The notes below the pieces were generated by a model. The model was not told where the DNA came from. It saw nothing but the letters and a program-made list of their open reading frames with translations, and searched no databases. The position numbers and the translations under genes are program-made. From a plasmid, in sequence record NZ_LC532224.1: a stretch of DNA of 64,000 nucleotides. One strand, given 5' to 3'. Below, piece by piece: positions 9,407 through 63,077 of this stretch. The stretch's first letter is position 1. Each line of letters starts with the position of its first letter.

Positions 9407-10044
9407 TGCGCCGCCTGCCTGTTTACCTTGTTATCGACACATCCGGCTCGATGCGCGGTGAGTCAATCCATTCCGTTAACGTTGGAATTCAGGCGATGCT
9501 TAGCGCTCTTCGCCAGGATCCCTACGCCCTCGAAAGCGTTCATATCTCCATTATCACCTATGACAATGAGGCGCGTGAGTTCATTCCTCTCACGCCGCTG
9601 GAAGACTTCCAGTTTTCTGACATCGTTGTGCCAAGCGCAGGCGGGACGTTCACCGGTGCTGCCCTTGAATGTCTGATGCAGTGTGTTGAACGGGATGTAC
9701 GTCGCTCAGATGGTGATACCAAAGGAGACTGGCGTCCTCTGGTATTCCTGATGACTGATGGAACCCCTTCTGATGCCCTGGCGTACGGTGAAGCGGTAAA
9801 AGCGATTCGCGGCCGGGGATTCGGATCCATCATTGCCTGCGCCGTTGGTCCTAAAGCAGGCCATGAGCACTTAAAACAGCTCACCGATAAGGTTGTGTCT
9901 CTGGAGACGCTAGATTCAACCGCGTTTGCAGGTTTCTTTAAATGGGTATCGGCCAGCGTGTCTTCCGGCAGCACAAGCGCGGGGATTAATAACGGAACTG
10001 ATACCCTTCCCCCTCCTCCACCAGAAATCCAGCTGGTGCTCTGA
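9406..10044 (+). CDS. terY: vWA-domain protein TerY paralog
   Basis: MRRLPVYLVIDTSGSM; ATG 9406 overlaps terX stop (TGATG). Confidence 0.8.
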   Translation: MRRLPVYLVIDTSGSMRGESIHSVNVGIQAMLSALRQDPYALESVHISIITYDNEAREFIPLTPLEDFQFSDIVVPSAGGTFTGAALECLMQCVERDVRRSDGDTKGDWRPLVFLMTDGTPSDALAYGEAVKAIRGRGFGSIIACAVGPKAGHEHLKQLTDKVVSLETLDSTAFAGFFKWVSASVSSGSTSAGINNGTDTLPPPPPEIQLVL

Positions 10045-10128
10045 CAGACAGAAAGGTGCTGTTTCCGGGCAGCACCTTTCTGTACAGCAACGTTTTCTGC
10101 TGGCCGTACCAGCCGTACGAGGAAAATT

Positions 10129-11169
10129 ATGAGACGCCTTCCCGTGTTTTTTGTCCTGGACTGTTCAGAGTCCATGATTGGTGAAAACCTGAAAAAAATG
10201 ACTGATGGTCTGCAAATGATCGTCGGAGATTTAAGAAAGGATCCACACGCACTTGAAACAGCCTGGGTCTCGGTAATCGCATTTGCCGGTGTAGCCCGTA
10301 CGATTGTACCTCTTCACGAAATTGCCTCGTTCTACCCTCCCCGCCTTCCCGTTGGCGGCGGTACGAGCCTTGGAGCTGCATTGCGTGAGCTGACCGTGCA
10401 AATTGATACCCAGGTCAGAAAAACCACTCATGAGGCTAAAGGCGACTGGAAACCCGTCGTGTATCTCCTTACCGACGGACGTCCGACTGACGACACAACC
10501 GCAGAAGTGAAGCGCTGGAAGGATCACTACGCGAGTAAAGTGAATCTCATTGCCGTTGGCCTGGGGCCGTCAGCGGACCTGAATATCCTGCGGCAACTGA
10601 CAGAGAATGTCATGCTGTTCACCGAATCTCAGGAAGGGGACTTTACCCGCTTCATCAAATGGATCACGGCCTCGGTTACGGCGCACAGCCGCAGCGTCGG
10701 GGACGACAAACAACCTGAGCTCAGCCAGACTGAATACATAGTCCGGCTGGCCAAGGACGAGCCAGTAAAAGCGTACGACGAAAACTGCGTTACGCTTACC
10801 GGCCGTTGCAGCAAGACCCGTCGTCCGTACCTGATGAAGTATGAACGGCCACCAGCAAGGGTTTCCGGGCTCGATTTCAGTCTGAACCTGAACAGCTTTA
10901 ATATTGCCGGATGCTATCCCATCGATGAGGACTATTTTGCGTGGTCAGATGCCACCGCTACCGGTTTGCAGGTAAATACCAGCGAACTGCATGGCGTACC
11001 GGGTTGCCCCCACTGCGGTAATGCCAGTGCGTTTGCCCTGTGCTCATGCGGAAAGTTGCTGTGTATTGACGGCCCGGATGACGTGATCTGCCCGTGGTGT
11101 GAAACAGGCCTGTCATTCAGCAATGATGGCGGAAACACTAACTTCGACGTAAACAGAGGGAGAGGTTGA
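10129..11169 (+). CDS. terY: vWA-domain protein TerY paralog with C-terminal zinc ribbon
   Basis: MRRLPVFFVLDCSESM vWA start; C-terminal CPHCG...CSCGKLLC...CPWCE. Confidence 0.8.
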   Translation: MRRLPVFFVLDCSESMIGENLKKMTDGLQMIVGDLRKDPHALETAWVSVIAFAGVARTIVPLHEIASFYPPRLPVGGGTSLGAALRELTVQIDTQVRKTTHEAKGDWKPVVYLLTDGRPTDDTTAEVKRWKDHYASKVNLIAVGLGPSADLNILRQLTENVMLFTESQEGDFTRFIKWITASVTAHSRSVGDDKQPELSQTEYIVRLAKDEPVKAYDENCVTLTGRCSKTRRPYLMKYERPPARVSGLDFSLNLNSFNIAGCYPIDEDYFAWSDATATGLQVNTSELHGVPGCPHCGNASAFALCSCGKLLCIDGPDDVICPWCETGLSFSNDGGNTNFDVNRGRG

Positions 11170-12806
11170 TGTCGCAAAATGCTTTACTTGAAGAGAAGAT
11201 TATCCGCTTAGTTCTGTCTGAGCTGGGCCACCCTGTTGAAGGTGAGCGGCTTTTACTTCTATCGCAGGACCCATCCCTTACCGAAGAAATTATGCGGCTT
11301 AAAGAGCGGATTGAGAGCCTTGCACAGGGTTTATCTGCGCGGGTTAGCGAAGGTGATAACGACGCAGAGATTGCCGCCTCGTCAGCATCCAGTCTTTCCG
11401 ATCAGCAACAAACGGTCGTAAGTGTTGCTGATAACCCGGGCATTGACGCTACCGATACATCAGCACTGCAACCCCTGCCAGAAAATGAGCCTCATCCTCC
11501 GTTCTGGAAGCTGATGCCTTATTACGAATTTGATAAACCAGCACAGAGGGAAGACGAAAACCTGTCTTCCCTGGTATTAAAACCCGGGCAGATACCGACA
11601 GGCCAGCAGCGGGCCAGCTTAGCTGTGCCACCTGCCGTTCCCCCGAGAGCTAAAATAACGATCCCCAACGCCCGCGCAGGCGAACGTTTCTCTTCGCCGG
11701 TTGCTATCGTTCTGGGTGAGGGCCAGCAGGCTACTGTCAGGGACGTTGTCTTTCCCCGGAACATTGGCCTGTCTTTTGACAAAGAACAGGAGTTGCTGAC
11801 AGGTACTCCCACCGAAAGCGGCGATATAGAGCTTTCAGTAATCTGGTCATGCACGTCGCACGACGAATGTGAAACAAAACAGCTATTTATAATCAATCCC
11901 GATCCGAGAAGCCTGTGGAAGGTGGTAGAGCCACCAGCAGACGCTCCCTACCCTAAGTCCCATCTGGACGCTGCTGGCCTGGTCAGGGGTGATATACGTA
12001 TTGCTGCCGCCAGTCGCCGGGGACGCTCTCATGAGCATGCCGGAAGCTTCAGAGATGACGACTTCTACATCAACCACTGCCAGGAAACAGGATGGTCTGT
12101 CATGCTGGTCGCAGACGGAGCCGGTAGTGCGGTAAATTCCCGGGAAGGCTCCCGGATTGCAGTCAAAACGGCTGGCGATTACCTTTTAAATCAGCTCAGT
12201 GGTGTGAAAGGCGTCCATTTAAAGCAGCACATCACGGCGTGGGAAGGGAGCGATCAGCAGGCAACAATAAACGCCATGCTTCATCATTTTAAACAGGCAG
12301 CTACGCTCGCGGTCAACAGTATCCAGAACGAAGCCATTTGTGCAGAACAACCTGTGAAATCCTATTCAACAACCCTTCTGGCAACTGTAGCGCTACGAAC
12401 TGATAACGAGCTGTTTGCGACTGCATTCTGGCTTGGTGATGGTGCGATAGGTGCATACAGCCCTTCCGGTAAAGTCAGGATACTGGGAAATCCCGATAGC
12501 GGAGAATACGCAGGACAAACCCGTTTCCTTGACCAGAGCATTATCGCAGACCCCTCGTTTAGCGGCCGCATCAGCGTGGGTAAATGGAATGATGTATCTC
12601 ACTTGATCCTCATGACAGACGGCGTCTCAGACCCTCTGTTTGAGACGGATAATGGGCTTCGCAGTGACGAAAAATGGACCCGTCTCGTTGATGAGCTCAA
12701 CCCTGTCCTTACAGACGCCAGTATTGCGCCTGAGAGGTTAGGCGACTGGCTTAACTTTTTCTCCACAGGGAACCATGATGACCGCACTATTGCGGTGTTG
12801 TGGTAA
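11166..12806 (+). CDS. PP2C-family Ser/Thr phosphatase of TerY-P triad
   Basis: 546 aa; PP2C-like LVADGAGS / LMTDGVSD motifs; overlaps flanking genes. Confidence 0.7.
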   Translation: MMSQNALLEEKIIRLVLSELGHPVEGERLLLLSQDPSLTEEIMRLKERIESLAQGLSARVSEGDNDAEIAASSASSLSDQQQTVVSVADNPGIDATDTSALQPLPENEPHPPFWKLMPYYEFDKPAQREDENLSSLVLKPGQIPTGQQRASLAVPPAVPPRAKITIPNARAGERFSSPVAIVLGEGQQATVRDVVFPRNIGLSFDKEQELLTGTPTESGDIELSVIWSCTSHDECETKQLFIINPDPRSLWKVVEPPADAPYPKSHLDAAGLVRGDIRIAAASRRGRSHEHAGSFRDDDFYINHCQETGWSVMLVADGAGSAVNSREGSRIAVKTAGDYLLNQLSGVKGVHLKQHITAWEGSDQQATINAMLHHFKQAATLAVNSIQNEAICAEQPVKSYSTTLLATVALRTDNELFATAFWLGDGAIGAYSPSGKVRILGNPDSGEYAGQTRFLDQSIIADPSFSGRISVGKWNDVSHLILMTDGVSDPLFETDNGLRSDEKWTRLVDELNPVLTDASIAPERLGDWLNFFSTGNHDDRTIAVLW

Positions 12807-12831
12807 GGGATACGCTTTTTCGGTGATCAAT

Positions 12832-14331
12832 ATGGCAAATATCGTTACGTGCAAAACAAAGGACGGCGAAACAGTCCAGTATGTTGACGAGGTAATTGGT
12901 TCGGGCTCGATGAAGGATGTTTACTTTTCGCCTGATAAATCATACGTCGTCGCTTTTTATCATAAACCGCAGAACGAGCAGGCCCGGGATCGGATTGATA
13001 TGATCACCGGACGCTACAGGCAAAACATTTTTGGCCAGTCCGGAGGTGAATACTGGAAGGACCTGTTTTGCTGGCCGACCCATGTTGTTGAGCATGGGCA
13101 TAAAATCGGCATCGTGGTTCCAACCTACAAAAGCTACTTTTTCTTTAAATACGGCTCTAAAAACGATGATTTTCTTGGCATAAAAGGTCGTGAAAAGGAA
13201 GGCAAATGGTTTGCCAGCGCCAGCAACCAGAACAAATTTCTCGACCCACGTGAACGAGGCAATACGCTTACCTATCTCAAGGTCTGTCTGCTGCTGACAA
13301 GAGCCGTCAGAAGGATGCATGCGGCAGGTCTCTGTCACAGCGATCTAAGCTATAAAAACGTGCTTATCGATCCAGAAATGGGACATGCCTGCATCATTGA
13401 CGTAGACGGCCTGGTTGTCCCTGGAAAGTATCCTCCCGACGTGGTGGGCACCCCGGATTTTATCGCTCCGGAAGTGGTGAAAACCAGTCATCTTTCCAAA
13501 GAGGATCCGAACCGCGTATTGCCAAGCATTACTACTGACCGTCATGCGCTGTCGGTGCTTATCTACATGTATCTGTTCTTCCGTCATCCGCTACGTGGCG
13601 GAAAAATACATGACATGTCGGATGAAGTACGTGATGAGACCTTATCTATGGGTGAGAAGGCACTCTTCATTGAACATCCGACAGACAAAAGCAATGCAGT
13701 CAAAGTCAGTCAGCTATCGTCCTTTTCACTGCCCTGGGCTGACCCGGAGAAAATTCCTTACACCATCATGGGCCCTTATCTGACACCTTTGTTTGAGCGC
13801 GCCTTTATAGATGGCTTACACGATGCCACTAAACGCCCGACCGCCGATGAGTGGGAAAGCGCCCTGGTTAAAACAGTCGATCTGATACAGCCCTGCCAGA
13901 ACAAGGCGTGTGAACAGAAATGGTACGTTTTCTCGGGTAAGACAAAGCCGGTTTGTCCCTACTGCGGTACGCCATACAAGGGTAAATTACCGGTTCTAAA
14001 TTTATATTCTTCCCGAAAGGAAGGCAGTTATCGTCCTGACGACCACCGGTTGATGGTGTGGAGCGGGCAGTCAATCTATGCGTGGCATGTGAATCGCCTC
14101 ATTGCGCCAAATGAGCGTACAACCGATTTGCAAAGGAAACGAGTTGGGTATTTTGTTTTCCATAACGATCAGTGGTGGTTAGTAAATGAAGGCATAAATG
14201 GGCTTATGTCATTACCGGATAAACGACAGATTGCCATTGGGGAAAAAATTGAACTGACGAATAACGCTCAGTTTGTTCTGTCAAAGGAGGAAGGCGGCAG
14301 GCTGGTCGTCGTTCAGTTAGTAGAAAACTAA
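12832..14331 (+). CDS. Ser/Thr protein kinase with C-terminal zinc ribbon
   Basis: catalytic loop HSDLSYKNVLID, DVDG; CxxC...CxxC; start at MANIV (12832) preferred over 12775. Confidence 0.7.
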   Translation: MANIVTCKTKDGETVQYVDEVIGSGSMKDVYFSPDKSYVVAFYHKPQNEQARDRIDMITGRYRQNIFGQSGGEYWKDLFCWPTHVVEHGHKIGIVVPTYKSYFFFKYGSKNDDFLGIKGREKEGKWFASASNQNKFLDPRERGNTLTYLKVCLLLTRAVRRMHAAGLCHSDLSYKNVLIDPEMGHACIIDVDGLVVPGKYPPDVVGTPDFIAPEVVKTSHLSKEDPNRVLPSITTDRHALSVLIYMYLFFRHPLRGGKIHDMSDEVRDETLSMGEKALFIEHPTDKSNAVKVSQLSSFSLPWADPEKIPYTIMGPYLTPLFERAFIDGLHDATKRPTADEWESALVKTVDLIQPCQNKACEQKWYVFSGKTKPVCPYCGTPYKGKLPVLNLYSSRKEGSYRPDDHRLMVWSGQSIYAWHVNRLIAPNERTTDLQRKRVGYFVFHNDQWWLVNEGINGLMSLPDKRQIAIGEKIELTNNAQFVLSKEEGGRLVVVQLVEN

Positions 14332-46789: not shown

Positions 46790-49700
46790 CTACTCACTGC
46801 TTGGTATTGATACAGTGTTTTCAGACTTACTTGCCTCTTCAGCCGGTCCGAAAACTGTCACGTGCTGTGTTGCAAAGTCTCCACTATCATCATAAGCAAT
46901 TACTTTTATGTCCTGCTTACCACGGTTAAGGTTTTTAGAAAGTGTTGCCGTACTACCGAAAACGTTCCTTAATTCGCCGTTGATGAACCATTCATATCTA
47001 ACCATTTTTCCATCAGTATCATCACATTTATTGGTAAAGCTCCAGCTTAGGTTGGTTTCCGTGTAGCTCAATGTACAATTAGGCACTGCGTTTTTAACGA
47101 CATCAAACTCAACAGATGCTGAACCTCTCTGTCCAAGTTTACTAACAACATCAATTGTAATCTCGTATTTCTTTTCTTTTAAACCCGAGATCAGTTGAGC
47201 CCAATAATTTTTGCCGCTGGGTATTACTTCACCGTTCACCTTGTATGTGACCGTATCTATCGAGTCCGCCGAATGAGATAGCTTGATGTTTGACCTTAAG
47301 GTTACATCGAGTGGAGCTCTCATATATTTGTTAGAGAACTTGGGTGTCATCTCAACGTTCATTGGCGTTTGTTCATCGACAACAAAGGTATTTTCGATAC
47401 GCTGTTCATTGTTTCGGTTATCTTTGAAAACAACCATCAATGTATATTTGCCAGGATTTTCAATTGTAAATTCTTTGGTGTCACCTTCATCTTTAGTGAT
47501 TACCAGATTCTCTTTGTCGTAGATCCATTCACGGGAATAAGTAACACCAGGATAGTCTCCATCCTTAATACCGCTCAACGCAACGCGTAGGGTGGTCGGT
47601 GCCATGTCGTATTTAAGTTTGGAGCTTATTTTCATCTCGGGAAATTTATAAACCCACGATTTGACAGAAACTCTACGGGTAGAAACCGTATTCTCCTTAT
47701 TGTCCGCTAACCATGCACTGTATTCAAAAGCAGCATATCCCTGTTTATCCAACATTTGCTCAGTAAGGGTAACAGACAGTGAAGAGCCCTTAAATGTCTG
47801 GCCATCCGGTGTTTTCCATTCTTCAACTACGTTATTACCATTCTGGTACTTACTGTTAGGGTTCGTGAACTTACCTTCCAAAGTAACTTTTTGACCAACC
47901 TCTACCTTTGAAACCCCCGTTACCGAGACAGAAAGGCGCTTGGGTTTTGCGGCTGCCAACCGAGCAGACGTTTCCTTCCATGAAGACTCCTCTGCCAGTT
48001 CATCGGAATCAAGGTAACGCATCCGGGCATAAATCGTAGACGGTAGGGTATCAGCTGAAGCCACAGTGTAAGTTGTATCTCCCTGCACCCAGTTGACTTT
48101 ATCCTCTGACCAGAGAACCTCAGCGGTGCCTGCTGGTATAGGTTCATCGTTATCAAGCAGGGTTACAGGTATATCTGAGCCCTGAAGAATGTCTGTAACA
48201 TCTATACTGAGCTTAGGCTGCTTGTAGGTAACTACCGTTAAGGCATCTGTGTAGGAAATCTTGGATGTGAATTTATTAGTCATTTTTGCCCTATAAAGCC
48301 ACTTTCCTACTTCTGTCTTTTTGATACTTACACTTCTCTTTCCGGTCATGTCGGAAAGCATGGTCCAGGTTTGACCATTATCAGAGGACTGCTGCCATTC
48401 GGTGGGGGCGAGTGCATCAGAGTTAGCCGTACTGGCAGATTTGAAGCTTACCAGAGTACTAAGTGGGATCCTTCCGATAATAAGGCTTTTCGACAGGTTA
48501 CCCTCCAGTTCCTCACCTTTATAGATTCGAATGCCTACAGCACTGGTCTCACGTTTCATTTCAAAATCAGAGAATGGCGATCTGACCTTAGCCACACCAA
48601 CCAGACGCATATTACCCAGATCCATATTTTCAATTTTAATCTTGGTTTCGACAATGCCCGCATCATTGACCGGCAATGCTTCAGTCAGCGCAGTTCTTTC
48701 GTATGTAGTTTTATAACGGCCTGTTTCTGGATCTTTGCCGTATACACTTTTTTGAGAGTATATCGTGACGTCCCATTCTCCCATTGTTTTACGGTCAAAT
48801 GCACTTTTACGTGTGGAGTTGTTATAACGCCCCACTGTTACCTTTAAGGGCACTTCAAGAGATGTGGCTGTTTTTTTGTCATCCACTTCCATCGATGCTC
48901 GAATATTGAAATCAGGCACCGTATATACGTTGAGGGTGTCTGTAGTTCTTAATTCTGGATCCTTTGAGTATTCTACAGCTATGTCAAAGACGTTCTTTGT
49001 CCACAATGGTGCAGCAGCAACCTTGACCCTTTGTACAAAGGTCGTTGCATCGTTGTTTGAGGAACGATTTTTAAATGACGTTTTGACAGCCTCAGAGCCG
49101 TTTTGAGAGACGATCATCGTAACGTCAGCTGGTACCACCTTCGCTAATATTCGAGCGGCCTCCCCCCCGGTCGTATAAGCCAGAGCAGTGTTCGGATTGA
49201 TGCCTGCTATGACTTTATTCTTTTTGTAAGAGATGATCGGGTTGTATGGTAATTGTGTGGTCAGAGTACGGCGATTCCTTGCGGAAACCGCTTTAGAGCC
49301 CTTCCCGTTAATCATATAGACTTGATAGTCGAGCAGATTCTCACCTGTTTTATTAAAGAATCCAGTTAGACCCGGGGTACGTCCTTTAAAATAGAACTCC
49401 AACCCATCAGGGACATTGTTCCACTGAGGGTAGCATGCTGTAACATCTGATTTTTCCCCATACCAGGCGAGGTAAGCATTCGCATTTTCCTCTGTGGTAA
49501 ACAGAGTGCATTTATCACCAGCTGTTTGACTAAGCAGGTCCGTATACTGACGTACGCGCGAGTAAAGAGTTACGTTTTTTTCCAGATTCTTAAGAGTGAA
49601 TCCAGTAGGTTGATAAGTGAACACGGTACTGAAATTTACGTTTTTTCCATAAAGGTTTTCAGCCACCACAGTAATCTCGTGATCCGAATTAACTGCTAAA

Positions 49701-51094
49701 TCGTCTCCAACCGGCAGGTAGTAAATACCTTTATAATTTGTAGGTGTTAACGAAACTACTTTGTTGTCTATTGTTACTGATTTTATGTCAGCAACCCCAG
49801 CCTGCCCCTGGAAAGCTGCAACGATAATCTCGTTCAGGAAGTATACGGGTGCTCGTTTAGTTAATACCTGCCCATCTTTGAGAACCATAAGCGTTGGGTT
49901 ATCAGACAGCATCAGTTTGCTTTCAGGCTCAGTGTACGTAGAAGAGTTTTTGCTCGTATTTTCTACTGTAAAAGTCGCTGCGTAGGACCCGTTTATAAGA
50001 TCCGTTAAGTCAAAGATATAGAGGTACTCATCACCGACTTTTTGAGGTCCACTTACCGGCTGTAAAGTTCTACGTAAAGGGGTTGCCCAGGACTGTTTGA
50101 AATCAATCTCAGTGCCATCATCTAAAGTCACTTTAGTCGTCGGCTTAAACACGCCATCCGGAGTCATAGTGAGCGACATAGCTGTTGGGAGCCACCATTC
50201 ACCTTCTGTTTCTTGCTGGGGTACCTTAACGGCCACAGCAACGGTTTTGGCTCCGGTATAGATGTCCTGGCCACCTACTTTGATTGTTTTAGCCTCATCG
50301 GTAAAATTCCAAAGTGTATGGTCTACTACAGGAGGCCGATAATCCCAGTTAACAACAAGCTTTTTGGATTCAGGAGGTGCGAAATAATTATTCTTAGAGT
50401 TTGCTGTAATTGTGATATCACGTGAACCCAAAAGTTCATCTGTATCACTGGCCTTAATGCTTCCAACTTCAATGGTACAGGAAGTTCCGCCAATAGGTAC
50501 TTCACAGGCGGAGCCTGAACCTATTGAGATGTATTGAATATAATTGCGGGGTTCAACAGAAACAGCGATATCTTTGATCGCTTCATCCTTTAAATACGAT
50601 TTGAAAGAAAAGCCGTCATAGACTAATCCGTTCAGGGATGATTTAAGACCGGTGATAGTTGGTTTTACCGGTGCCACACTTTTGATTGAATATTCACCTT
50701 TTACTATTTCAACTTTTTTCCGTTCAGAACCAGAGAAGTAAGAAATCTTGTAAGGTAGTTTTAAATCACCGGTGGTGTTGGGAACGCCTGAAAGAGTGAA
50801 GCCGTTAGAAGTTAATCCCAAGGTATTGGGTAACCACTCAAAAAAACAAACGAGGTTATCAACAGAGGAAGTCGCTCGATCATCAACCGTTACATTACAG
50901 GCTGTGCCTGCACCTGAGGCAGTGATAGTGTTAGAATTAACGTATGCAACAAAGTCGCCCGGCCCCGGGTCAAAGGATACGGCTGGCAAATCAGCCTGTA
51001 GCTTTCCTGAAATCATAATCGCTTCAGCATAGACCGCTTTAATCGGAGCAATTAAAGAAAACAACAGGGCTAAACCTAAACCTGATTTTCTCAT
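46790..51094 (-). CDS. rsp: large secreted bacterial Ig-like repeat protein (RSP-like)
   Basis: 1434 aa; signal peptide; Thr/Ser/Val/Asn-rich beta repeats throughout; size and location match the Ig-like RSP protein of IncHI plasmids. Confidence 0.55.
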   Translation of the reverse strand: MRKSGLGLALLFSLIAPIKAVYAEAIMISGKLQADLPAVSFDPGPGDFVAYVNSNTITASGAGTACNVTVDDRATSSVDNLVCFFEWLPNTLGLTSNGFTLSGVPNTTGDLKLPYKISYFSGSERKKVEIVKGEYSIKSVAPVKPTITGLKSSLNGLVYDGFSFKSYLKDEAIKDIAVSVEPRNYIQYISIGSGSACEVPIGGTSCTIEVGSIKASDTDELLGSRDITITANSKNNYFAPPESKKLVVNWDYRPPVVDHTLWNFTDEAKTIKVGGQDIYTGAKTVAVAVKVPQQETEGEWWLPTAMSLTMTPDGVFKPTTKVTLDDGTEIDFKQSWATPLRRTLQPVSGPQKVGDEYLYIFDLTDLINGSYAATFTVENTSKNSSTYTEPESKLMLSDNPTLMVLKDGQVLTKRAPVYFLNEIIVAAFQGQAGVADIKSVTIDNKVVSLTPTNYKGIYYLPVGDDLAVNSDHEITVVAENLYGKNVNFSTVFTYQPTGFTLKNLEKNVTLYSRVRQYTDLLSQTAGDKCTLFTTEENANAYLAWYGEKSDVTACYPQWNNVPDGLEFYFKGRTPGLTGFFNKTGENLLDYQVYMINGKGSKAVSARNRRTLTTQLPYNPIISYKKNKVIAGINPNTALAYTTGGEAARILAKVVPADVTMIVSQNGSEAVKTSFKNRSSNNDATTFVQRVKVAAAPLWTKNVFDIAVEYSKDPELRTTDTLNVYTVPDFNIRASMEVDDKKTATSLEVPLKVTVGRYNNSTRKSAFDRKTMGEWDVTIYSQKSVYGKDPETGRYKTTYERTALTEALPVNDAGIVETKIKIENMDLGNMRLVGVAKVRSPFSDFEMKRETSAVGIRIYKGEELEGNLSKSLIIGRIPLSTLVSFKSASTANSDALAPTEWQQSSDNGQTWTMLSDMTGKRSVSIKKTEVGKWLYRAKMTNKFTSKISYTDALTVVTYKQPKLSIDVTDILQGSDIPVTLLDNDEPIPAGTAEVLWSEDKVNWVQGDTTYTVASADTLPSTIYARMRYLDSDELAEESSWKETSARLAAAKPKRLSVSVTGVSKVEVGQKVTLEGKFTNPNSKYQNGNNVVEEWKTPDGQTFKGSSLSVTLTEQMLDKQGYAAFEYSAWLADNKENTVSTRRVSVKSWVYKFPEMKISSKLKYDMAPTTLRVALSGIKDGDYPGVTYSREWIYDKENLVITKDEGDTKEFTIENPGKYTLMVVFKDNRNNEQRIENTFVVDEQTPMNVEMTPKFSNKYMRAPLDVTLRSNIKLSHSADSIDTVTYKVNGEVIPSGKNYWAQLISGLKEKKYEITIDVVSKLGQRGSASVEFDVVKNAVPNCTLSYTETNLSWSFTNKCDDTDGKMVRYEWFINGELRNVFGSTATLSKNLNRGKQDIKVIAYDDSGDFATQHVTVFGPAEEASKSENTVSIPSSE

Positions 51095-51189: not shown

Positions 51190-52532
<1,343 letters not shown>

Positions 52533-52894
52533 CTAGACTTAACGATGTTAAAATTTTGGTTGTATTAAAATCCTCCTGCGAAAGTGAAATCATCCATGTA
52601 TTATCTTTATGATAGTCGGTGATATAAATAAAATGAGATGTAAAAGGCGTTGAGTGATTGAACTCTCCTAAGTTCCATCCATACTGTCTCACTGTATTTG
52701 AGCTAAGTTCTTTGTCGGTAATGTTCATAATTCATACCTTTCGATAAAGTCTGTAATGATAATTAGCTATCTCAAAGGCCCAGAACAACTCTTGAAATAA
52801 CCTCACTCGAAGAATTTATCATATTGAACACCCCTACCTAATAACCTTGCCGACTTAATAAATCACAATAGCCCTCCCCTGTCATTTTAAAACG

Positions 52895-53386
52895 CTACTT
52901 GAATTTTTGATAGCTTATAGTTGTTTTACGTTCTTTGTGATACTCATATGTCATCTTCTCTTTCCAGTACCAATCTTGTAAATCCTGCAAGTCTAGCCCA
53001 TTTTTCTCACGTATGCTTTCGTGTAATTCGCTAAGCGCGAGTTTATCATTAGGTTTATAAATGGCTAATTTTTCTTCAAATAAATCCAGCCAACGTTTCC
53101 CCATCTTTCGACGCAAAACAAACACCATCGTGATAATTGTACTGAAATGCACAGCAATTAGTTCCAACTTATGCGATTGCTGACCAGATAAAATTACTAT
53201 TGTAACAACAGGGATGGCCGTATATAAAGCAATCAAAGCGACCATAAGTTGATATGGTTTTTCCCGTATTACCATGTCCATGGGTAAACCAGAGGACGCT
53301 ACTGCTTGCCAAAATCTTAAATACCTTCCGATGGACTTAAACCTTTTCCCGTTTTTATGCATAAACCTGTTTTTATTTACTATCAT
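52895..53386 (-). CDS. hypothetical membrane protein
   Basis: 163 aa; two hydrophobic helices. Confidence 0.4.
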   Translation of the reverse strand: MIVNKNRFMHKNGKRFKSIGRYLRFWQAVASSGLPMDMVIREKPYQLMVALIALYTAIPVVTIVILSGQQSHKLELIAVHFSTIITMVFVLRRKMGKRWLDLFEEKLAIYKPNDKLALSELHESIREKNGLDLQDLQDWYWKEKMTYEYHKERKTTISYQKFK

Positions 53387-53470
53387 GTTAGACCTCTATT
53401 TTTCTGTAATTCTAGAAGAATGTTACCTTAACCCTTAACAGGGATAACACCGCATGTATTATCTCCATAA

Positions 53471-53986
53471 TCAAAGCGCAGGGCCGGTAATAAAAAGTAC
53501 CATACCATCGATGTGTAGTTCGTTCAGTGCATCCCTGTCCGTGGATAGCTTTCTAATGTTGTCAGGAGTTGCATCAATCGGGTATAAATCTTGCGTCAGT
53601 TTGACGAGATTCTTCTCAGTGCAGGTAAGACCGCCTTCAGCGAGAGTGCGCAGGTAATCACTAAACACGACTTCTTTTTCATCAGAGGTAAGTCGCTCGA
53701 AGTACCCCATATGTTCGGACGTGAAATTCTCATCTGCAATACTTCTCACTACTGAGATGATATCCGACCTTATGACCAACTCCCGCACCGCAGCATAAAA
53801 AATCCTGCCGTAATGTCCTGACACGTTTTCCTTTGCGAGCCACCAGCGCTCATCCGTGGTAACGGGTACTGTGGTCGGGGATGCCAGTAGCAGAACGGGG
53901 CTTAAACCGGATCGCGATAACCCTTCAGCAAAAGCTTCTTCAGGAAGACTGCTAACAGGCTTGCCTTGATAACGTGCTTCTACCAT
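53471..53986 (-). CDS. hypothetical protein
   Basis: 171-aa ORF co-directional with the large ORF. Confidence 0.45.
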   Translation of the reverse strand: MVEARYQGKPVSSLPEEAFAEGLSRSGLSPVLLLASPTTVPVTTDERWWLAKENVSGHYGRIFYAAVRELVIRSDIISVVRSIADENFTSEHMGYFERLTSDEKEVVFSDYLRTLAEGGLTCTEKNLVKLTQDLYPIDATPDNIRKLSTDRDALNELHIDGMVLFITGPAL

Positions 53987-54093
53987 CTATGCTTCTCCTT
54001 TCTGATGTAGGCATGACTGCCTTCTATTTAAGCAATCAGTAAACCGGATTGAGCTGAGCAACGTTATCCTTCTCCCATCATTGCTTGCCACTT

Positions 54094-54405
54094 TTACCAT
54101 AAGCGCCAAACAATTAGCCCCATTATTCCGGTTGTAAACTGAACCTTAACACTAACCAGTATGAATCGGTCATCTGGGGCAAAGTGTCCACCGGGTTGAA
54201 GTAGCCAGGTTGTTAGCGGCGGATGGAAAGCCAGTACGAATCCGTAAACTATAAAAGCCAAGCTCAGTAAAAGAAGGAGCATGCGCCCAATACGTTTGAG
54301 TTGATAAGATAAACTCGCGCTAGTTTTTCGTGGGGGTACGATATGGTCTTTCAACACTGTCTCCTTGCCAGCAAATGCCGAAGCGCTGGCATAAAGATTA
54401 AACAA
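54094..54405 (-). CDS. small membrane protein
   Basis: 103 aa; central TM (LLLLLSLAFIVYGFVLAF). Confidence 0.4.
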   Translation of the reverse strand: MFNLYASASAFAGKETVLKDHIVPPRKTSASLSYQLKRIGRMLLLLLSLAFIVYGFVLAFHPPLTTWLLQPGGHFAPDDRFILVSVKVQFTTGIMGLIVWRLW

Positions 54406-54550
54406 TTTTTATGCCAGTTACTCCGGCGAGATGGGTGATAATCCTCGTTGCCATCATAAAGCCTTATCTCTTTCAAATTTGAGCGATAAGGGGTCTTTGA
54501 GCCTGTAATGGCTTTTTGTTTGATGTTTTGATGGCACCTGCCCCCGCGTT

Positions 54551-57500
54551 TTACCATGACCGAAGTACATAGCGGCTCACACCTTCTGCTGGCTGTTGCC
54601 ACTCGCTATTCTCCGTTGACGGTCTGAGGCGCGTCGAGCCCCGGGAGATGTTTTTCATCGCCTGCTCAAGAGTGTCCATCCTGTAGGTTTTGATGTTCAC
54701 CCCTTCTTCAGAAATAGGCCCCAGCAGTTCCGTAACCTCACGCTCACCCTGATAAATATCGACCCACTGTGTAATATTCACCTTATCACCATTCGCATCA
54801 ATGCCACGTCGGTTAAAGTGGTCAATTTCAAACTCACACACGGTTACCGGTACCAGCCCCTCCGGGCGCGGATACCCGAGTATTTCATCAAAACCAGGTT
54901 CCCCTTCATCAGTGACCAGATCAGGCGTCAAATAGAGTTTTCCGTTACGGGAAAAATGCGCAACATGGCAGGACCACTGGTCATTTAACATCGTTGGCAT
55001 GCTTGTGAACATTCCTGAATACCACCGTCTGGCATTATCAACTGATTTGGTGACGAGGATTTCATCTGGTACTTCCCCGTTGTCCATGGTGTAAAAACTG
55101 AGAGACAGAGCGGTATTTCTGCGTGAAAGTAGCTTTTCTTTATTGACCTCTTTATTTTCAAATTTGGACAGGTATTCCTCAAGGAACAGCGCCTGCAACT
55201 CGGGTGTCGGCGCTTTCTGATAAAACCAGTCGGCCAGGTCTTTAGTGCCAATATAGATGAGGCTGGCTTTACCTTTTTCGCTCTTGACCGCAACAGGAGC
55301 CATTAGGCTTACTTGCTGTACGTACTCACTGGTTTCATTGATACTTTCATAGGCCTCAATCCACTGGCCAAGCAGATTGGTGTAAATCACCGGATCGTTC
55401 AGCTTTAAAAACTGCTTAAGAGCCTGAGCGCCACGGGAGCATGTATCAAAATAACGCTGCTTCTCTTCGAAGCTTTTGAAAGCAGTCTTTTTGCCCGACC
55501 ATGTGGCCACCAGCTGTTCATCTTCGAACAGGGTGTTTTCAGCTGGTAAGAAGTGTTTCATTTTCGCAAAACGTTGATGAGTGACGTTTAAGACATTTCG
55601 GGATGTAGCAAGTACCATTCGATGAACCCAGGCATGCCCTTCCATCCGGTTGTCGCATTCAAAATTTGCTGGTGCGGCATATGCAACAAGTTTCCCTGAA
55701 GCATTTACCGATAACCTGACCAGCTCATAGCCTTTGCTGCTAATAAAATTACGAACCCCGGGAAGATGTTTGAGCCCCACATCAGCGAGCATATAGAGCT
55801 GGTTCAGGAGCTCTTTGGAGCCCTTCTCTGTACTCATGGCAGCTTCCAGCGTCGCCCCCCTGTTATCAGCTCGCCAGGCTACAATGCATCGATCTATCAA
55901 CTCTGATCTCAGATTAGGCTGGCCAATATTTCCATCGGCCAGAGCCTGGCTCAGCATCTGCCGGTAAGGTTCTTCTGCCTCACGCTCGGCACGAATATAA
56001 TTTAAAGCCATCTTGAAGAAGCGAATGTAAAACAGGTGATTAGACCTGAATTTACGTCTGTGAATGTACCATTCGAGCTCCTCCGCTTTAATGGTATCCA
56101 TGCACAGGAAACCCAGTTCAGCATCATTCCTGCTGGACTCCTTAAATAAAGACAAATTCACCTTACAATTGAAATCTCGATCCGTTGAGTATCTGTTTAC
56201 TGTTGCGTTGACACAGATATCGTCTCCCTGACGGAATGCAATAACCGGCTCATAGTTTTTATGGGTTCTCCCAAGCCATTTATAGCCAGAGTAGCTGTTG
56301 TCTTCCTGAACTGCTCCTGGTGCTGTCACTGGGTTCATCAACGAATCCCAGTTGCACATTACCCGGGATCCGGACTGAAGGCATGAGTTTGCCTGTTCAA
56401 GATAACTTTGCAGAGACGGCCGTGTCTCAGCCATACCCAAAAGGCCAGAACCGTCTTTGTCGTGCAGAAATTGGAAGTACCGTTCCTGGAACTCAAGGCT
56501 CAGAAAACTGTAAGGGGTATTGGTATCATAGAAATCACCAAATAGTTTGAGCCGGTGATCGAGGCCGCAGATAAGGATCAGGAAACGACGGTAGTGAAGT
56601 GCCATAAGATCATGCTGCTTCAGTCGGTCGGTATAACTGACGTCCTCAAACTTTATGGTGCTGCCATCAATCCCCTGGAAATGTGCTTCCTGTTCGCTGG
56701 CGGAAGGGAATAGCTGCGAAGCCCCAAGATGGCTTTCTACCGAAGAGTAAACCTGATGAATATTTTGACCGTCCCGGACCAGAAGGAATACAACCCGGTT
56801 CCTGTCATTGCGGACATGATTTTCCCAGGGATCGCGGTAATCGATATAACGTCGTGTTGTGGCCATACATACGATGGAACGTTCGGACGGAAAAATCTGC
56901 TCCACCAGCCCGGGGCTGGTTCGTAAAGTTTCATGAAATTTTTCCATATCAGAGAAGTCGAACCAGCTATCGAGATCGCACCATACGGCCAGCTCTTCAT
57001 CCACCATCAGCTTTGCCTGAACGACCTGGAGCGGGAGGTGTGATGGAGCGGATTCACCCTTCACGATATTCACTACCTCAACGTCTTTGCCGGTATACAG
57101 TTCCAGACTGCCAACGCCATCGTGGATTTTCTTCACATATTCCATGGCTTCTTCTGTAGTGGCCAGACTTGCCGCTGCAACTTCCTCGAAATAGGGCAGC
57201 ATTCTTTTGCTGGCATTAGCGATTGCCTGCGTTCGTTGTGTGATGATTTTGCTGATGGCTGTGCTGATCTGCCCTTCTTTTAAGGCCGCTTCTCTGATTT
57301 GTTCAATGCGGGTATCTGAAATACCAGAGGACAGAGCATTTTGAACTGATCCAATCGCCAGTGAGGTTACCGCCTGCTGCTCTTGTGGGGGCACTAACGC
57401 AACGCTAAGGCCCGTCACAGGGTTTTCACGGTCATCTGTACCTAATTGCTCAATCGCAAGGTCACGGAACCCCTGAGCATCGCTCACGAGGGCTGTAAGC

Positions 57501-57886
57501 GATGCCTGTAGGCTATTCACTTCTTCCTGAGCTTGTCTGAGTTCAGCATCCCGGATTACCTTATGGTCGGGTTCAAATACAAAACTGGACAGAAAATCCT
57601 TAACCAGGAAGCGATGCTCTCGCATTTCTTTGCCACGTTCCCTACGGTTGCCGCTGCTGTCTTCAGTGACAATAGCTACAGTCTGACCGTAAACGCGGGG
57701 ATGGGCGCGTAGAATCACTGTGTGCAGCTTATCTTCAACGTAACGCAAAGACGTAATGAGCAGCGTATCCCCTGCCACAATACCCTCTTCAGGGATGCTG
57801 TCAGTGGACGTCCAGTACTGACCCGCCAGCAAAGAATGAAATCGCTCTAAACGGTCAATGTTATTTTTGCTGACCAGGTCACCCAT
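54551..57886 (-). CDS. large hypothetical protein, no recognisable domain
   Basis: uninterrupted 1111-aa ORF; AT-rich upstream region; no P-loop or known catalytic motif seen. Confidence 0.6.
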   Translation of the reverse strand: MGDLVSKNNIDRLERFHSLLAGQYWTSTDSIPEEGIVAGDTLLITSLRYVEDKLHTVILRAHPRVYGQTVAIVTEDSSGNRRERGKEMREHRFLVKDFLSSFVFEPDHKVIRDAELRQAQEEVNSLQASLTALVSDAQGFRDLAIEQLGTDDRENPVTGLSVALVPPQEQQAVTSLAIGSVQNALSSGISDTRIEQIREAALKEGQISTAISKIITQRTQAIANASKRMLPYFEEVAAASLATTEEAMEYVKKIHDGVGSLELYTGKDVEVVNIVKGESAPSHLPLQVVQAKLMVDEELAVWCDLDSWFDFSDMEKFHETLRTSPGLVEQIFPSERSIVCMATTRRYIDYRDPWENHVRNDRNRVVFLLVRDGQNIHQVYSSVESHLGASQLFPSASEQEAHFQGIDGSTIKFEDVSYTDRLKQHDLMALHYRRFLILICGLDHRLKLFGDFYDTNTPYSFLSLEFQERYFQFLHDKDGSGLLGMAETRPSLQSYLEQANSCLQSGSRVMCNWDSLMNPVTAPGAVQEDNSYSGYKWLGRTHKNYEPVIAFRQGDDICVNATVNRYSTDRDFNCKVNLSLFKESSRNDAELGFLCMDTIKAEELEWYIHRRKFRSNHLFYIRFFKMALNYIRAEREAEEPYRQMLSQALADGNIGQPNLRSELIDRCIVAWRADNRGATLEAAMSTEKGSKELLNQLYMLADVGLKHLPGVRNFISSKGYELVRLSVNASGKLVAYAAPANFECDNRMEGHAWVHRMVLATSRNVLNVTHQRFAKMKHFLPAENTLFEDEQLVATWSGKKTAFKSFEEKQRYFDTCSRGAQALKQFLKLNDPVIYTNLLGQWIEAYESINETSEYVQQVSLMAPVAVKSEKGKASLIYIGTKDLADWFYQKAPTPELQALFLEEYLSKFENKEVNKEKLLSRRNTALSLSFYTMDNGEVPDEILVTKSVDNARRWYSGMFTSMPTMLNDQWSCHVAHFSRNGKLYLTPDLVTDEGEPGFDEILGYPRPEGLVPVTVCEFEIDHFNRRGIDANGDKVNITQWVDIYQGEREVTELLGPISEEGVNIKTYRMDTLEQAMKNISRGSTRLRPSTENSEWQQPAEGVSRYVLRSW

Positions 57887-58108
57887 ATACCTTTCCTTCC
57901 AGATTCGTATGTTAGGTGAATCATACCAGATTGCACTTACCGTCTAATAACTCAAAAAACACCAACTTCGGCATTCACTAGAAATGAATCCGTCCACTAT
58001 TATTCATTAATTAAATAGATTCTTAGATATGAATAGCGCATTGCTTTTAAAGCAGGTTTCGCAAAGGGTTAAAAAAGGCTTCTTAAGTGAAGCCTTTAAT
58101 AATAAATG

Positions 58109-58462
58109 CTACTTATCTTCAGAGGGATACATTTCCCAGTATTTATTACGTACATTAACAAGGCAATGGTCTGCTGTTTCTGAAGCGCCTTTGTCGCGGT
58201 TTACAAAGGCTTCTGCAACTTCATCCAACTTATCCGGTACCGTATTTAATGGTAATGCCTGCTTCAGGTTGGTGGTTACCAGTTCCTTTGCTTTATCATG
58301 ATTAAGTTCAGTTCGGATGCTTGCATCTTTACAAATATCATCAACCTTACCATCAAGAATAATGTTTGGGATAGGTTCGTTTTCAACTTTATGTGTAGTA
58401 TTAGCAGAGGAGCCAAAAGCGACTGACATCATCGCACACAGCAGAATATTTTTTAATTTCAT
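58109..58462 (-). CDS. small secreted/periplasmic protein
   Basis: 117 aa; signal peptide MKLKNILLCAMMSVAFGSSA; two Cys. Confidence 0.45.
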   Translation of the reverse strand: MKLKNILLCAMMSVAFGSSANTTHKVENEPIPNIILDGKVDDICKDASIRTELNHDKAKELVTTNLKQALPLNTVPDKLDEVAEAFVNRDKGASETADHCLVNVRNKYWEMYPSEDK

Positions 58463-58804
58463 AGTTCACTCCATTATGACTATTGATATCTACTTATGAA
58501 GTATTAGTTATATCATGTTTGCCGTCAAAACATAGAACCCACTGTTTTGACTTTAAACATATCATGCTACAACGTTTTTTTGCACGTGACTTTAGTAGGC
58601 ATGATTTATGAGGTTTCAGCAGGACGTCAGATTGTTGTCGATCCAGTATTGATGCAAGCCTACCGTCCATTTCTTCGATAAGGCCGAAAGTAAAAGCGCT
58701 AAACCACAGCAGTTACCAGGAGTAAAAATTCGTATGGGATCTGGAGAACCGACTTTAACACTCATAATGAACTCCAGAATGTTGCCATGGGTAATGACTC
58801 CAAC

Positions 58805-59308
58805 TTATTGATAGTGTTTTATGTTCAGATAATGCCCGATGACTTTGTCATGCAGCTCCACCGATTTTGAGAACGACAGCGACTTCCGTCCCAGCCGTGC
58901 CAGGTGCTGCCTCAGATTCAGGTTATGCCGCTCAATTCGCTGCGTATATCGCTTGCTGATTACGTGCAGCTTTCCCTTCAGGCGGGATTCATACAGCGGC
59001 CAGCCATCCGTCATCCATATCACCACGTCAAAGGGTGACAGCAGGCTCATAAGACGCCCCAGCGTCGCCATCGTGCGTTCACCGAATACGTGCGCAACAA
59101 CCGTCTTCCGGAGCCTGTCATACGCGTAAAACAGCCAGCGCTGGCGCGATTTAGCCCCGACGTATCCCCACTGTTCGTCCATTTCCGCGCAGACGATGAC
59201 GTCACTGCCCGGCTGTATGCGCGAGGTTACCGACTGCGGCCTGAGTTTTTTAAATGGCGGAAAATCGTGTTGAGGCCAACGCCCATAATGCGGGCGGTTG
59301 CCCGGCAT
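58805..59308 (-). CDS. insB: IS1 InsB (expressed as InsAB' by frameshift)
   Basis: [27 protein letters not shown]... canonical InsB. Confidence 0.9.
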
Positions 59309-59502
59309 CCAACGCCATTCATGGCCATATCAATGATTTTCTGGTGCGTACCGGGTTGAGAAGCGGTGTAAGTGAACTGCAGTTGCCATGTTTTACGGCA
59401 GTGAGAGCAGAGATAGCGCTGATGTCCGGCAGTGCTTTTGCCGTTACGCACCACCCCGTCAGTAGCTGAACAGGAGGGACAGCTGATAGAAACAGAAGCC
59501 AC
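59227..59502 (-). CDS. insA: IS1 InsA
   Basis: [39 protein letters not shown]... Confidence 0.9.
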
Positions 59503-59557
59503 TGGAGCACCTCAAAAACACCATCATACACTAAATCAGTAAGTTGGCAGCATCACC

Positions 59558-61990: not shown

Positions 61991-62093
61991 GTACTTATTT
62001 CAATGAAGCAATATCAATTACAAAGCGGTATTTCACATCGCTTTTCAACATCCGCTGCCAGGCACGATTAATATCCTGGGTAATGACTCCAAC

Positions 62094-62597
62094 TTATTGA
62101 TAGTGTTTTATGTTCAGATAATGCCCGATGACTTTGTCATGCAGCTCCACCGATTTTGAGAACGACAGCGACTTCCGTCCCAGCCGTGCCAGGTGCTGCC
62201 TCAGATTCAGGTTATGCCGCTCAATTCGCTGCGTATATCGCTTGCTGATTACGTGCAGCTTTCCCTTCAGGCGGGATTCATACAGCGGCCAGCCATCCGT
62301 CATCCATATCACCACGTCAAAGGGTGACAGCAGGCTCATAAGACGCCCCAGCGTCGCCATCGTGCGTTCACCGAATACGTGCGCAACAACCGTCTTCCGG
62401 AGCCTGTCATACGCGTAAAACAGCCAGCGCTGGCGCGATTTAGCCCCGACGTATCCCCACTGTTCGTCCATTTCCGCGCAGACGATGACGTCACTGCCCG
62501 GCTGTATGCGCGAGGTTACCGACTGCGGCCTGAGTTTTTTAAATGGCGGAAAATCGTGTTGAGGCCAACGCCCATAATGCGGGCGGTTGCCCGGCAT
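62094..62597 (-). CDS. insB: IS1 InsB
   Basis: identical to 58805..59308 product. Confidence 0.9.
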
Positions 62598-62791
62598 CCA
62601 ACGCCATTCATGGCCATATCAATGATTTTCTGGTGCGTACCGGGTTGAGAAGCGGTGTAAGTGAACTGCAGTTGCCATGTTTTACGGCAGTGAGAGCAGA
62701 GATAGCGCTGATGTCCGGCAGTGCTTTTGCCGTTACGCACCACCCCGTCAGTAGCTGAACAGGAGGGACAGCTGATAGAAACAGAAGCCAC
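62516..62791 (-). CDS. insA: IS1 InsA
   Basis: identical to 59227..59502 product. Confidence 0.9.
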
Positions 62792-63077
62792 TGGAGCACC
62801 TCAAAAACACCATCATACACTAAATCAGTAAGTTGGCAGCATCACCACCTCGCTGAACCTTGCCATATAAGCATCGTACTCAGCCTGGTCTTCAGGAGAT
62901 AAAAAATTTGGTGGGAGGAGCATCAGAATCCTTTCATCCTAGCTTGTATACCTTCTTCGTAGGCCAGCTCGCCATTATCGGTAAAAGATGGTTTTTGATG
63001 TTTATGATAAAGCTTAATTTTTCGTCAGGCTTGATAGCGTTACCGGAGAGATTTGATCTTTTCTCTTCAACTCGCAA

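Follow-up and report, generated by a model that had tools for sequence, protein, structure and literature searches.

An 1111-residue protein of an IncHI2-type plasmid belongs to an uncharacterised family carried by large mobile elements

Results and Discussion

We analysed a 64,000-nucleotide stretch of a plasmid (sequence record NZ_LC532224.1, hereafter the window), in which a block of about 6.3 kb had been read, in a preliminary description made from the letters alone, as a cassette bounded by insertion sequences (IS) and built from a very large protein with three small partners. Our analysis points to a different unit. The large gene (54551-57886, minus strand) encodes a cytoplasmic protein of 1111 amino acids (aa), listed in RefSeq as WP_000502666.1, 'hypothetical protein', and is a member of a large uncharacterised family. 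The block around it is, judged by its relatives, a piece of IncHI plasmid backbone into which IS have inserted and not an IS-carried cassette. With a probability that we put at about one in three, the 1111-aa protein would be a stand-alone factor that serves the mobile element, either in establishment or in counter-defence. What looked like a multi-gene defence cassette is an artefact that IS insertions and a lineage-specific indel have produced, and for this reason the 6-kb block is the wrong unit of study and the large gene alone the right one.

Among the main carriers of multidrug resistance are IncHI2, IncHI1 and IncFIB/IncHI1B megaplasmids, about half of whose genes are without a known role. 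The large gene is among the biggest on such megaplasmids and has counterparts on very distant plasmids, on integrative elements and in a jumbo phage; its family is present on the IncHI2 and IncHI1B plasmids by which mcr, carbapenemase and extended-spectrum beta-lactamase genes are spread. Its function, once known, could bring to light a new means by which large mobile elements become established or compete, and could provide a target or marker for limiting plasmid spread.

A protein family of large mobile elements

A word-indexed search with the 1111-aa protein resulted in at least 370 relatives, nearly all of them full length (1100-1190 aa) and 36-58% identical, without a name or a Pfam domain; across the family, length ranges from about 1000 to 1190 aa. 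Profile searching of 1.84 billion cluster representatives yielded 2069 matches at E <= 1e-3 and 696 at E <= 1e-30, and tblastn on PLSDB gave 1641 plasmid records, 1473 of which (90%) are conjugative. When 40 rows were sampled evenly down the PLSDB ranking, all 40 plasmids measured 185-423 kb. Carriers include IncHI2, IncHI1-like, Klebsiella IncFIB/IncHI1B, Providencia, Citrobacter, Delftia and Acinetobacter plasmids, Rts1 contains pieces of a homologue, and a scan of one genome per species identified 40 loci, mostly in Gamma-, Beta- and Alphaproteobacteria. Every source name given to a family member is 'hypothetical' or 'uncharacterised', and our literature search found no paper that names the protein or its accession. 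Matches lie on plasmids, integrative elements and phages, and no chromosomal defence-island context was found among them. As had been anticipated of an accessory gene, the large open reading frame (ORF) sits on mobile elements; it is not a fusion of known genes or a piece of one, and it is not found in housekeeping contexts.

The search of GenBank phages by tblastn returned a single record, that of Tunturiibacter phage Tunturi 5, an isolated 309-kb myovirus and jumbo phage of Acidobacteriota (PMC11924767). Its gp128 (locus L058 of our set, 9980-13282) has 1100 aa, is 36.7% identical over aa 16-872 and keeps 75 of the 83 residues that are invariant in the family; it is surrounded by a long co-directional run of small unknown genes together with an RNA ligase, a DNA ligase and a thymidylate kinase. 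This homologue indicates that the family has passed between phyla and between kinds of mobile element. In IMG/VR, scanning for two conserved peptide patterns, which could miss divergent copies, detected two loci only, and phage carriage of the family looks real but rare. Taken together, these results show that the carriers of the family are, with few exceptions, large conjugative plasmids and integrative elements of Proteobacteria, and that phage copies are rare.

The high proportion of conjugative carriers, and the position of the gene near the Tra1 region and the origin of transfer (oriT) in IncHI plasmids, speak for a conjugation accessory, for example a protein that the type IV secretion system delivers to the recipient cell, or a modulator of mating. 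However, the family is also present in phage and in plasmids typed as non-mobilisable, its carriers differ in transfer type (MOBH/MPF_F, MOBH/MPF_T and MOBP/MPF_T), and there are conjugative IncHI2 plasmids that lack the large gene; we regard such a role as very unlikely.

Conservation and predicted structure of the 1111-aa protein

No match to the 1111-aa protein was obtained in Pfam, NCBIfam or PHROGs, and sequence searches of the PDB with the protein and with a 71-sequence profile resulted in chance matches only (E ~0.5; Cmr3, large T antigen and NOL9), which bears out the preliminary description in seeing no recognisable motif. A Foldseek search of the AlphaFold2 model, a check that it had proposed, was also negative, with nothing in the PDB at E <= 1e-3. 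By sequence or fold, the protein contains no detectable NTPase, nuclease, protease, TIR, Sir2 or other effector domain, and no SMC, ParB or DNA-binding fold was detected. Fused domains were sought with Pfam in 36 typical and 8 C-terminally divergent members, with no result, and PHROGs gave nothing consistent across the 36 members. The family is therefore without a described relative by sequence or fold. A single structural relative was retrieved from BFVD, an uncharacterised 641-aa protein of a Siphoviridae contig (E 7e-25).

The protein is soluble and acidic (isoelectric point, pI, 5.5; net charge -29) and has no signal peptide. Modelled with confidence by AlphaFold2 on a 71-sequence alignment (mean predicted local distance difference test, pLDDT, 80.8; predicted template-modelling score, pTM, 0.61), it is predicted to have, with approximate boundaries, an N-terminal beta domain or barrel (aa ~20-105), a long helical stalk (108-265) with a disordered, variable linker at 155-167, a highly conserved alpha/beta core (270-600), a helical domain (~600-717; residues 601-718 are basic, pI 9.2), and C-terminal alpha/beta modules (720-1111) that are variable from about aa 800 onwards. 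In the family profile, conservation extends across the full length of the protein, with its maximum at aa 200-500 and its minimum at 800-1100. The 83 invariant columns of the 71-sequence alignment include many Arg, His, Asp and Glu residues in the core; among the invariant polar residues are Q290, E298, D310, R336, Y350, R371, E384 and H386, as well as D415, H431, R434, D443, R445, D476, N500 and R508.

Compared with the variant on the IncHI2 plasmid p1 of ECO8855, the ratio of nonsynonymous to synonymous substitution rates (dN/dS) of the large gene is 0.16. Together with the family-wide conservation, this value rules out a pseudogene or relic, and by these measures the large ORF is a genuine functional gene under purifying selection. 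It is conceivable, and we propose it only tentatively, that the family represents a new protein class with a new fold, which large mobile elements would use to overcome or manipulate their hosts through an undescribed catalytic centre comprising E384/H386, H431/R434, D443/R445 and D476.

The block is IncHI backbone interrupted by insertion sequences

Over its 6.3 kb the region matches, at 100% identity, large conjugative IncHI2 plasmids from Enterobacter, Salmonella, Klebsiella and E. coli, for example pK29 (typed IncHI2A, MOBH, MPF_F). Among its PLSDB matches, coverage is at least 80% in 289 of 1070 records, and in complete E. coli genomes 433 of the 446 matching places are located on plasmids. 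RefSeq names every annotated gene of the block 'hypothetical protein'. The same 6781 bp (52010-58790) occur in IncHI2 plasmids whose umuDC side lacks IS, such as pESCOTC_24, in which the block continues IS-free into an intact gene of ~202 aa and then umuDC. An intact copy of this gene is found at L002 18084-18692; in the window it survives as a 3' end (58616-58790, minus strand; its last ~58 codons) cut by IS1 copy A (58788-59557), and relative to pK29 the window has an extra 365-bp deletion in the gene beside IS1. This IS1 is thus a secondary insertion into the ~202-aa gene and no cassette boundary. The opposite flank is an IS5-family transposase remnant (51991-52383, minus strand), also present in pK29-type plasmids, which truncates a gene of ~175 aa to its 5' end (52533-52728, minus strand); that gene is intact in ECO8855 p1 (L014). 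Both truncated genes belong to the anatomy of the block and were missing from the gene list of the preliminary description.

The gene order TrhG, LT, Trx, DsbA, umuCD, ~202 aa, 117 aa, 1111 aa is shared by the IncHI2 plasmids pK29, pESCOTC_24 and ECO8855 p1, and it recurs in an IncHI1-like MOBH/MPF_F plasmid with a ~204-aa version of the first of the three last genes and with unrelated small genes after the 1111-aa gene. Position and orientation relative to Tra1 and umuDC, by which backbone genes can be recognised, are therefore kept in independent IncHI lineages, and the block always stands at the same backbone site by umuDC, with or without the IS5 remnant and IS1. A composite transposon would have the same IS at both ends and would move as a unit to unrelated sites; here the ends are an IS5-family remnant and IS1. 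Because relatives have IS-free junctions and intact flanking genes, the block is best read as backbone with IS insertions. Of the earlier account, the IS5 remnant, the IS1 and the nearby SOS mutagenesis genes stand, umuDC being located past a second IS1 copy, but the flanking elements are different from each other and are lacking in relatives, so that the block is not an IS-bounded unit.

A 99% identical copy of the large gene was found in an Enterobacter hormaechei B17-3 record titled complete chromosome (L017, 226665-249997), which suggests a chromosomal integration of IncHI2 plasmid DNA.

The segment that holds the large gene differs in its rate of change from its surroundings. Between IncHI2 and IncHI1-like plasmids, UmuD, UmuC, DsbA, Trx and LT are 75-89% identical, whereas identity is 50% for the ~202-aa protein, 29% for the 117-aa protein and 46% for the 1111-aa protein. 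These values mark the trio as a part of the backbone that evolves fast or is exchanged while the rest is stable, although each allele of the large gene is under purifying selection. The gene can also be lost. In pMCR_W5-6 and other mcr-type IncHI2 plasmids, the 163-aa gene is kept beside a resistance region and the large protein is reduced to aa 1-48 or 1-239, a pattern which agrees with the position of the resistance region between umuC and dcm in pJXP9 (PMC9599605).

The small neighbouring genes are not partners

All five co-directional ORFs of the preliminary description are present on the minus strand. The 117-aa ORF (58109-58462), the upstream syntenic neighbour of the 1111-aa gene, is IncHI-specific and encodes a signal-peptide protein with a Sec-type N-terminus, as expected of the secreted protein it had been called, and the 163-aa ORF (52895-53386; 128 aa in other annotations) has the two hydrophobic, transmembrane helices attributed to it. 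The 171-aa ORF (53471-53986) is a real plasmid gene for a soluble protein. The 103-aa ORF (54094-54405) exists but is a doubtful gene: it begins with TTG, has no RefSeq annotation from the Prokaryotic Genome Annotation Pipeline (PGAP), and lies in a 565-bp spacer which is replaced in the Enterobacter locus L017, a close relative, and mostly deleted in L014. Pfam, NCBIfam and PHROGs recognised none of the five proteins.

These genes had been taken as a multi-gene abortive-infection or toxin-immunity cassette, mobilised by IS, in which the 103-, 171- and 163-aa proteins assist the large one. In the window the genes are indeed co-directional, and transmembrane helices are predicted in two of the small ORFs. 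Against this stands a single clean indel of 1447 bp (52919-54365), present here and absent from ECO8855 p1, which takes away the 163-aa gene, the 171-aa gene and most of the 103-aa ORF and leaves the large gene intact under purifying selection. The 163-aa and 171-aa genes and the 103-aa ORF are also absent from the syntenic locus of the IncHI1-like plasmid; the 163-aa gene persists without the large gene in the mcr-type plasmids described above; and relatives of the 171-aa protein (38% identical) occur in Klebsiella IncFIB/IncHI1B plasmids ~5.8 kb from the large-gene homologue; the 171-aa gene is unlinked to the large gene. Only two upstream genes, those of ~202 aa and 117 aa, accompany the large gene within IncHI, and no downstream gene does. 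With, in addition, an unannotated and non-conserved 103-aa ORF, flanking IS of different families that are absent in related plasmids, and no partner conserved in the 42 loci described below, we consider a multi-gene cassette highly improbable, and the small downstream genes are presumably unrelated passengers. Because downstream partners are absent or replaced in relatives, the arrangement of a giant protein followed by small membrane proteins, which had been likened to abortive-infection effectors, is an accident of lineage.

The 117-aa protein is hypervariable, with 46% identity between IncHI2 variants whose 1111-aa proteins are ~98% identical, and 29% to the IncHI1-like version. This suggests that a periplasmic or surface protein may have undergone allelic replacement or strong diversifying selection. 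In the ~202-aa protein, the stretch 'RVRHNLCHGN' displays an R-x4-H pattern that recalls HEPN RNases; Pfam found nothing in this protein, and the motif is a lead only. A similar R-x4-H pattern, 'DLRNEVLHTG', is seen in an Acidovorax protein encoded near a large-gene homologue (L009 14648-15484).

Neighbourhoods of family members

In order to compare gene neighbourhoods, ORFs of at least 70 aa were called at 42 loci and clustered by blastp. No family of flanking genes travels with the large gene through these loci, and the neighbourhood check suggested by the preliminary description thus provided no conserved partner. A Pfam census covered the two genes closest to it on either side (35 loci, 138 proteins), and the commonest family in it occurred only 3 times. 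Within 10 kb of the large gene, an AAA ATPase is encoded at 9 of the 42 loci, a Cys-rich protein of ~141 aa at 8, a tyrosine integrase at 7 (0.1-2.9 kb downstream in 5), DUF262/GmrSD_N at 6, UmuD at 6 and UmuC at 5, and DUF3846 and HipA at 5 each. The AAA ATPase (PF00004, ~536 aa, with an unknown N-terminal half) is translationally coupled upstream of the homologue in three Acidovorax loci (L009 8389-9999, L026 and L046), preceded by a DUF262/GmrSD_N gene, and is found ~12 kb from the homologue on Citrobacter-type plasmids of 200-330 kb. As an obligate partner it was rejected, being present on only 178 PLSDB plasmids and absent from IncHI2.

Pfam tags in five neighbourhoods include genes of the establishment or anti-defence type, namely an orphan N6/N4 methylase, DUF3846, AcrVA2-like, Acb1, Lar, ProQ/FinO and H-NS. 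In pK29, where the position of oriT was deduced from the gene order around mobI and not mapped, the large gene lies ~19-22 kb from this oriT, beyond the trh operon on the non-relaxase side.

A further possibility is that the protein maintains or organises the DNA of very large replicons, its stalk and globular domains acting in genome positioning, replication-associated processing or repair. The sizes of the 40 sampled plasmids (all 185-423 kb) and the 309-kb genome of the phage homologue are in keeping with this, as are the short distances (2.4-6 kb) to replication initiator genes in three plasmid groups that are not related to each other, the umuDC adjacency in IncHI, and the basic helical domain at 601-718. 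However, the protein is acidic overall, no SMC, ParB or DNA-binding fold was detected in it, the association with size is confounded by plasmid lineage, and IncHI2 plasmids of 240-290 kb that lack the large gene are common and typed as conjugative. Furthermore, divergence faster than that of the flanking backbone would be unusual for a core maintenance gene. We judge this explanation to be quite unlikely.

Comparison with known systems

PADLOC-DB 2.0, applied to the five window proteins and 36 family members, gave isolated chance-level matches only. The one named model that touches the large protein is that of KwaB from the Kiwa system (DUF4868), at E 0.003 on aa 752-822, a stretch that is modelled as a five-stranded sheet followed by helices and that also drew phrog_15620 at E 0.25. 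The likeness ends there: the match is seen in 1 of 36 family members and covers 70 of 1111 residues, there is no multi-pass, KwaA-like partner in the neighbourhood, and no small protein of the block matches any PADLOC model. With no DUF4868 found by Pfam and no KwaB structure among the listed PDB matches, identity with KwaB/DUF4868 was rejected as chance. A toxin-immunity module, proposed by the preliminary description among other kinds of cargo, also found no support. The large protein has no toxin or trafficking domain, no Pfam domain of any kind and no signal peptide, as would be looked for in a polymorphic toxin, and it is followed by a different gene in every lineage and by no conserved immunity gene.

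In plasmid leading regions, anti-defence islands are reported to be bounded by umuDC-like operons (Samuel et al. 2024, PMC11541004). The large gene shares with these islands an adjacency to a umuDC-like operon and the company of small unknown genes, orphan methylases, DUF3846, AcrVA2-like and ProQ/FinO, and the pK29 gene is on the non-relaxase side of the inferred oriT. It differs in that ~20 kb, including the trh operon, separate it from oriT and its transcription leads away from oriT, and in that in other plasmid families it stands beside rep genes and not oriT. The IncHI1 core genome contains 67 hypothetical genes (PMC5390554), and the large gene resembles these uncharacterised IncHI ORFs in being a syntenic backbone gene without an assigned function; unlike most of them, it is among the largest genes and belongs to a family that reaches Beta- and Alphaproteobacteria and a phage of Acidobacteriota.

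DarB of phage P1 is a very large cytoplasmic anti-restriction protein of an invading element and is dispensable in permissive hosts; it offers a functional analogy only. Like DarB-type proteins, the 1111-aa protein is large, cytoplasmic and encoded by the element, and Tunturi 5 encodes both a DarB-like protein and a homologue of the family. In contrast to DarB, which has methyltransferase and helicase domains, no such domain is found in the large-protein family.

Proposed role of the large protein

In the reading we prefer, that of a stand-alone establishment or counter-defence factor, the large protein would reside in the cytoplasm and would act for the mobile element rather than for the host cell. 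Its activity may be exerted on entry into a new cell or in competition with host defences, as counter-defence or host manipulation. The centre of activity or binding would be located in the strongly conserved region of about aa 200-520, and target specificity could be provided by the poorly conserved C-terminal ~300 residues. We place this reading first because plasmids, integrative elements and a jumbo phage all carry the family, because of the establishment-type neighbours and the umuDC adjacency, and because a conserved core is combined with a variable C-terminus. The fast divergence of the trio and the variable C-terminus resemble the signature of an arms race, and we count this apparent signature for the same reading.

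Several observations weigh against it. The protein has no homology to any known anti-defence protein, and known counter-defence proteins are usually much smaller. In pK29 its gene is read in the direction leading away from oriT, which sets it apart from classic leading-region genes; relative to mobI the gene is divergent in pK29 but convergent in the Acidovorax locus; and in pENVA and in Citrobacter and Acinetobacter plasmids the gene is rep-adjacent, 2.4-6 kb from replication initiators. The neighbourhoods with establishment-type genes also hold genes of the defence type, namely MmeI and EcoRII restriction enzymes, HipA and GmrSD_N. Widespread IncHI2 plasmids that retain only aa 1-48 or 1-239 are still typed as conjugative, which makes the large gene dispensable under at least some conditions.

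Some of the same evidence would suit a plasmid-borne defence or exclusion system made of a single gene, in which a phage or competing plasmid would be sensed by the variable C-terminus and the response carried out by the conserved core. Such a two-part layout fits a sensor-effector, the large gene diverges fast relative to the backbone and is patchy in occurrence and frequently lost, restriction enzymes, HipA and GmrSD_N are present in some neighbourhoods, and defence genes do occur on mobile elements, Tunturi 5 among them (PMC11924767). On the other hand, no PADLOC model matches beyond the KwaB hit in 1 of 36 members, no effector domain is recognised in the large protein by sequence or fold, and chromosomal defence-island contexts are lacking. 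The homologue in a jumbo phage, inside an array of small genes with ligases and thymidylate kinase, also argues against it. We consider single-gene defence unlikely, if still worth weighing beside a role in establishment or counter-defence.

Other features of the window

The intergenic region 5' of the 1111-aa gene (57887-58108, minus strand) contains, as read directly from the sequence, a terminator-like hairpin at ~58068-58095 after the 117-aa gene and a Shine-Dalgarno sequence, AAGGAAAGG, which precedes the ATG of the 1111-aa gene. It also contains the AT-rich stretch that had been noted as a promoter region: the GC fraction is 0.36-0.37 at 58000-58499, as well as at 52500-53499, and 0.46-0.51 in the 1111-aa gene. 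A scan for promoter and terminator consensus sequences gave no excess over the shuffled expectation. The 1111-aa gene probably forms its own transcription unit.

In Klebsiella IncFIB/IncHI1B plasmids (pENVA, L061, 1-12000; and L016), an orphan N6/N4 methylase, the large gene, a 117-aa gene, a 263-aa gene and RepB are co-directional. In the same array, RepB is followed by ~20 small unknown genes, including DUF6012 and DUF4942, and psiA (plasmid SOS inhibition) lies ~40 kb further on.

On the side of the IS5 remnant, the window contains, directly beside IS26 (51235-51957), a gene for a 1434-aa secreted Ig-like protein (46790-51094), which matching plasmids list as RSP, an IncHI conjugal transfer protein; the transfer region has been brought beside the block in the window by IS26 and IS1 rearrangements. 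On the umuDC side, a second direct copy of IS1 (62076-62845), with umuD beyond it, forms with the first copy (58788-59557) the borders of a 2.5-kb chromosomal fragment that comprises 5'-truncated uspE, ynaJ and ynaI. This fragment is only ~78% identical to E. coli chromosomes and is therefore attributed to capture from another enterobacterial chromosome.

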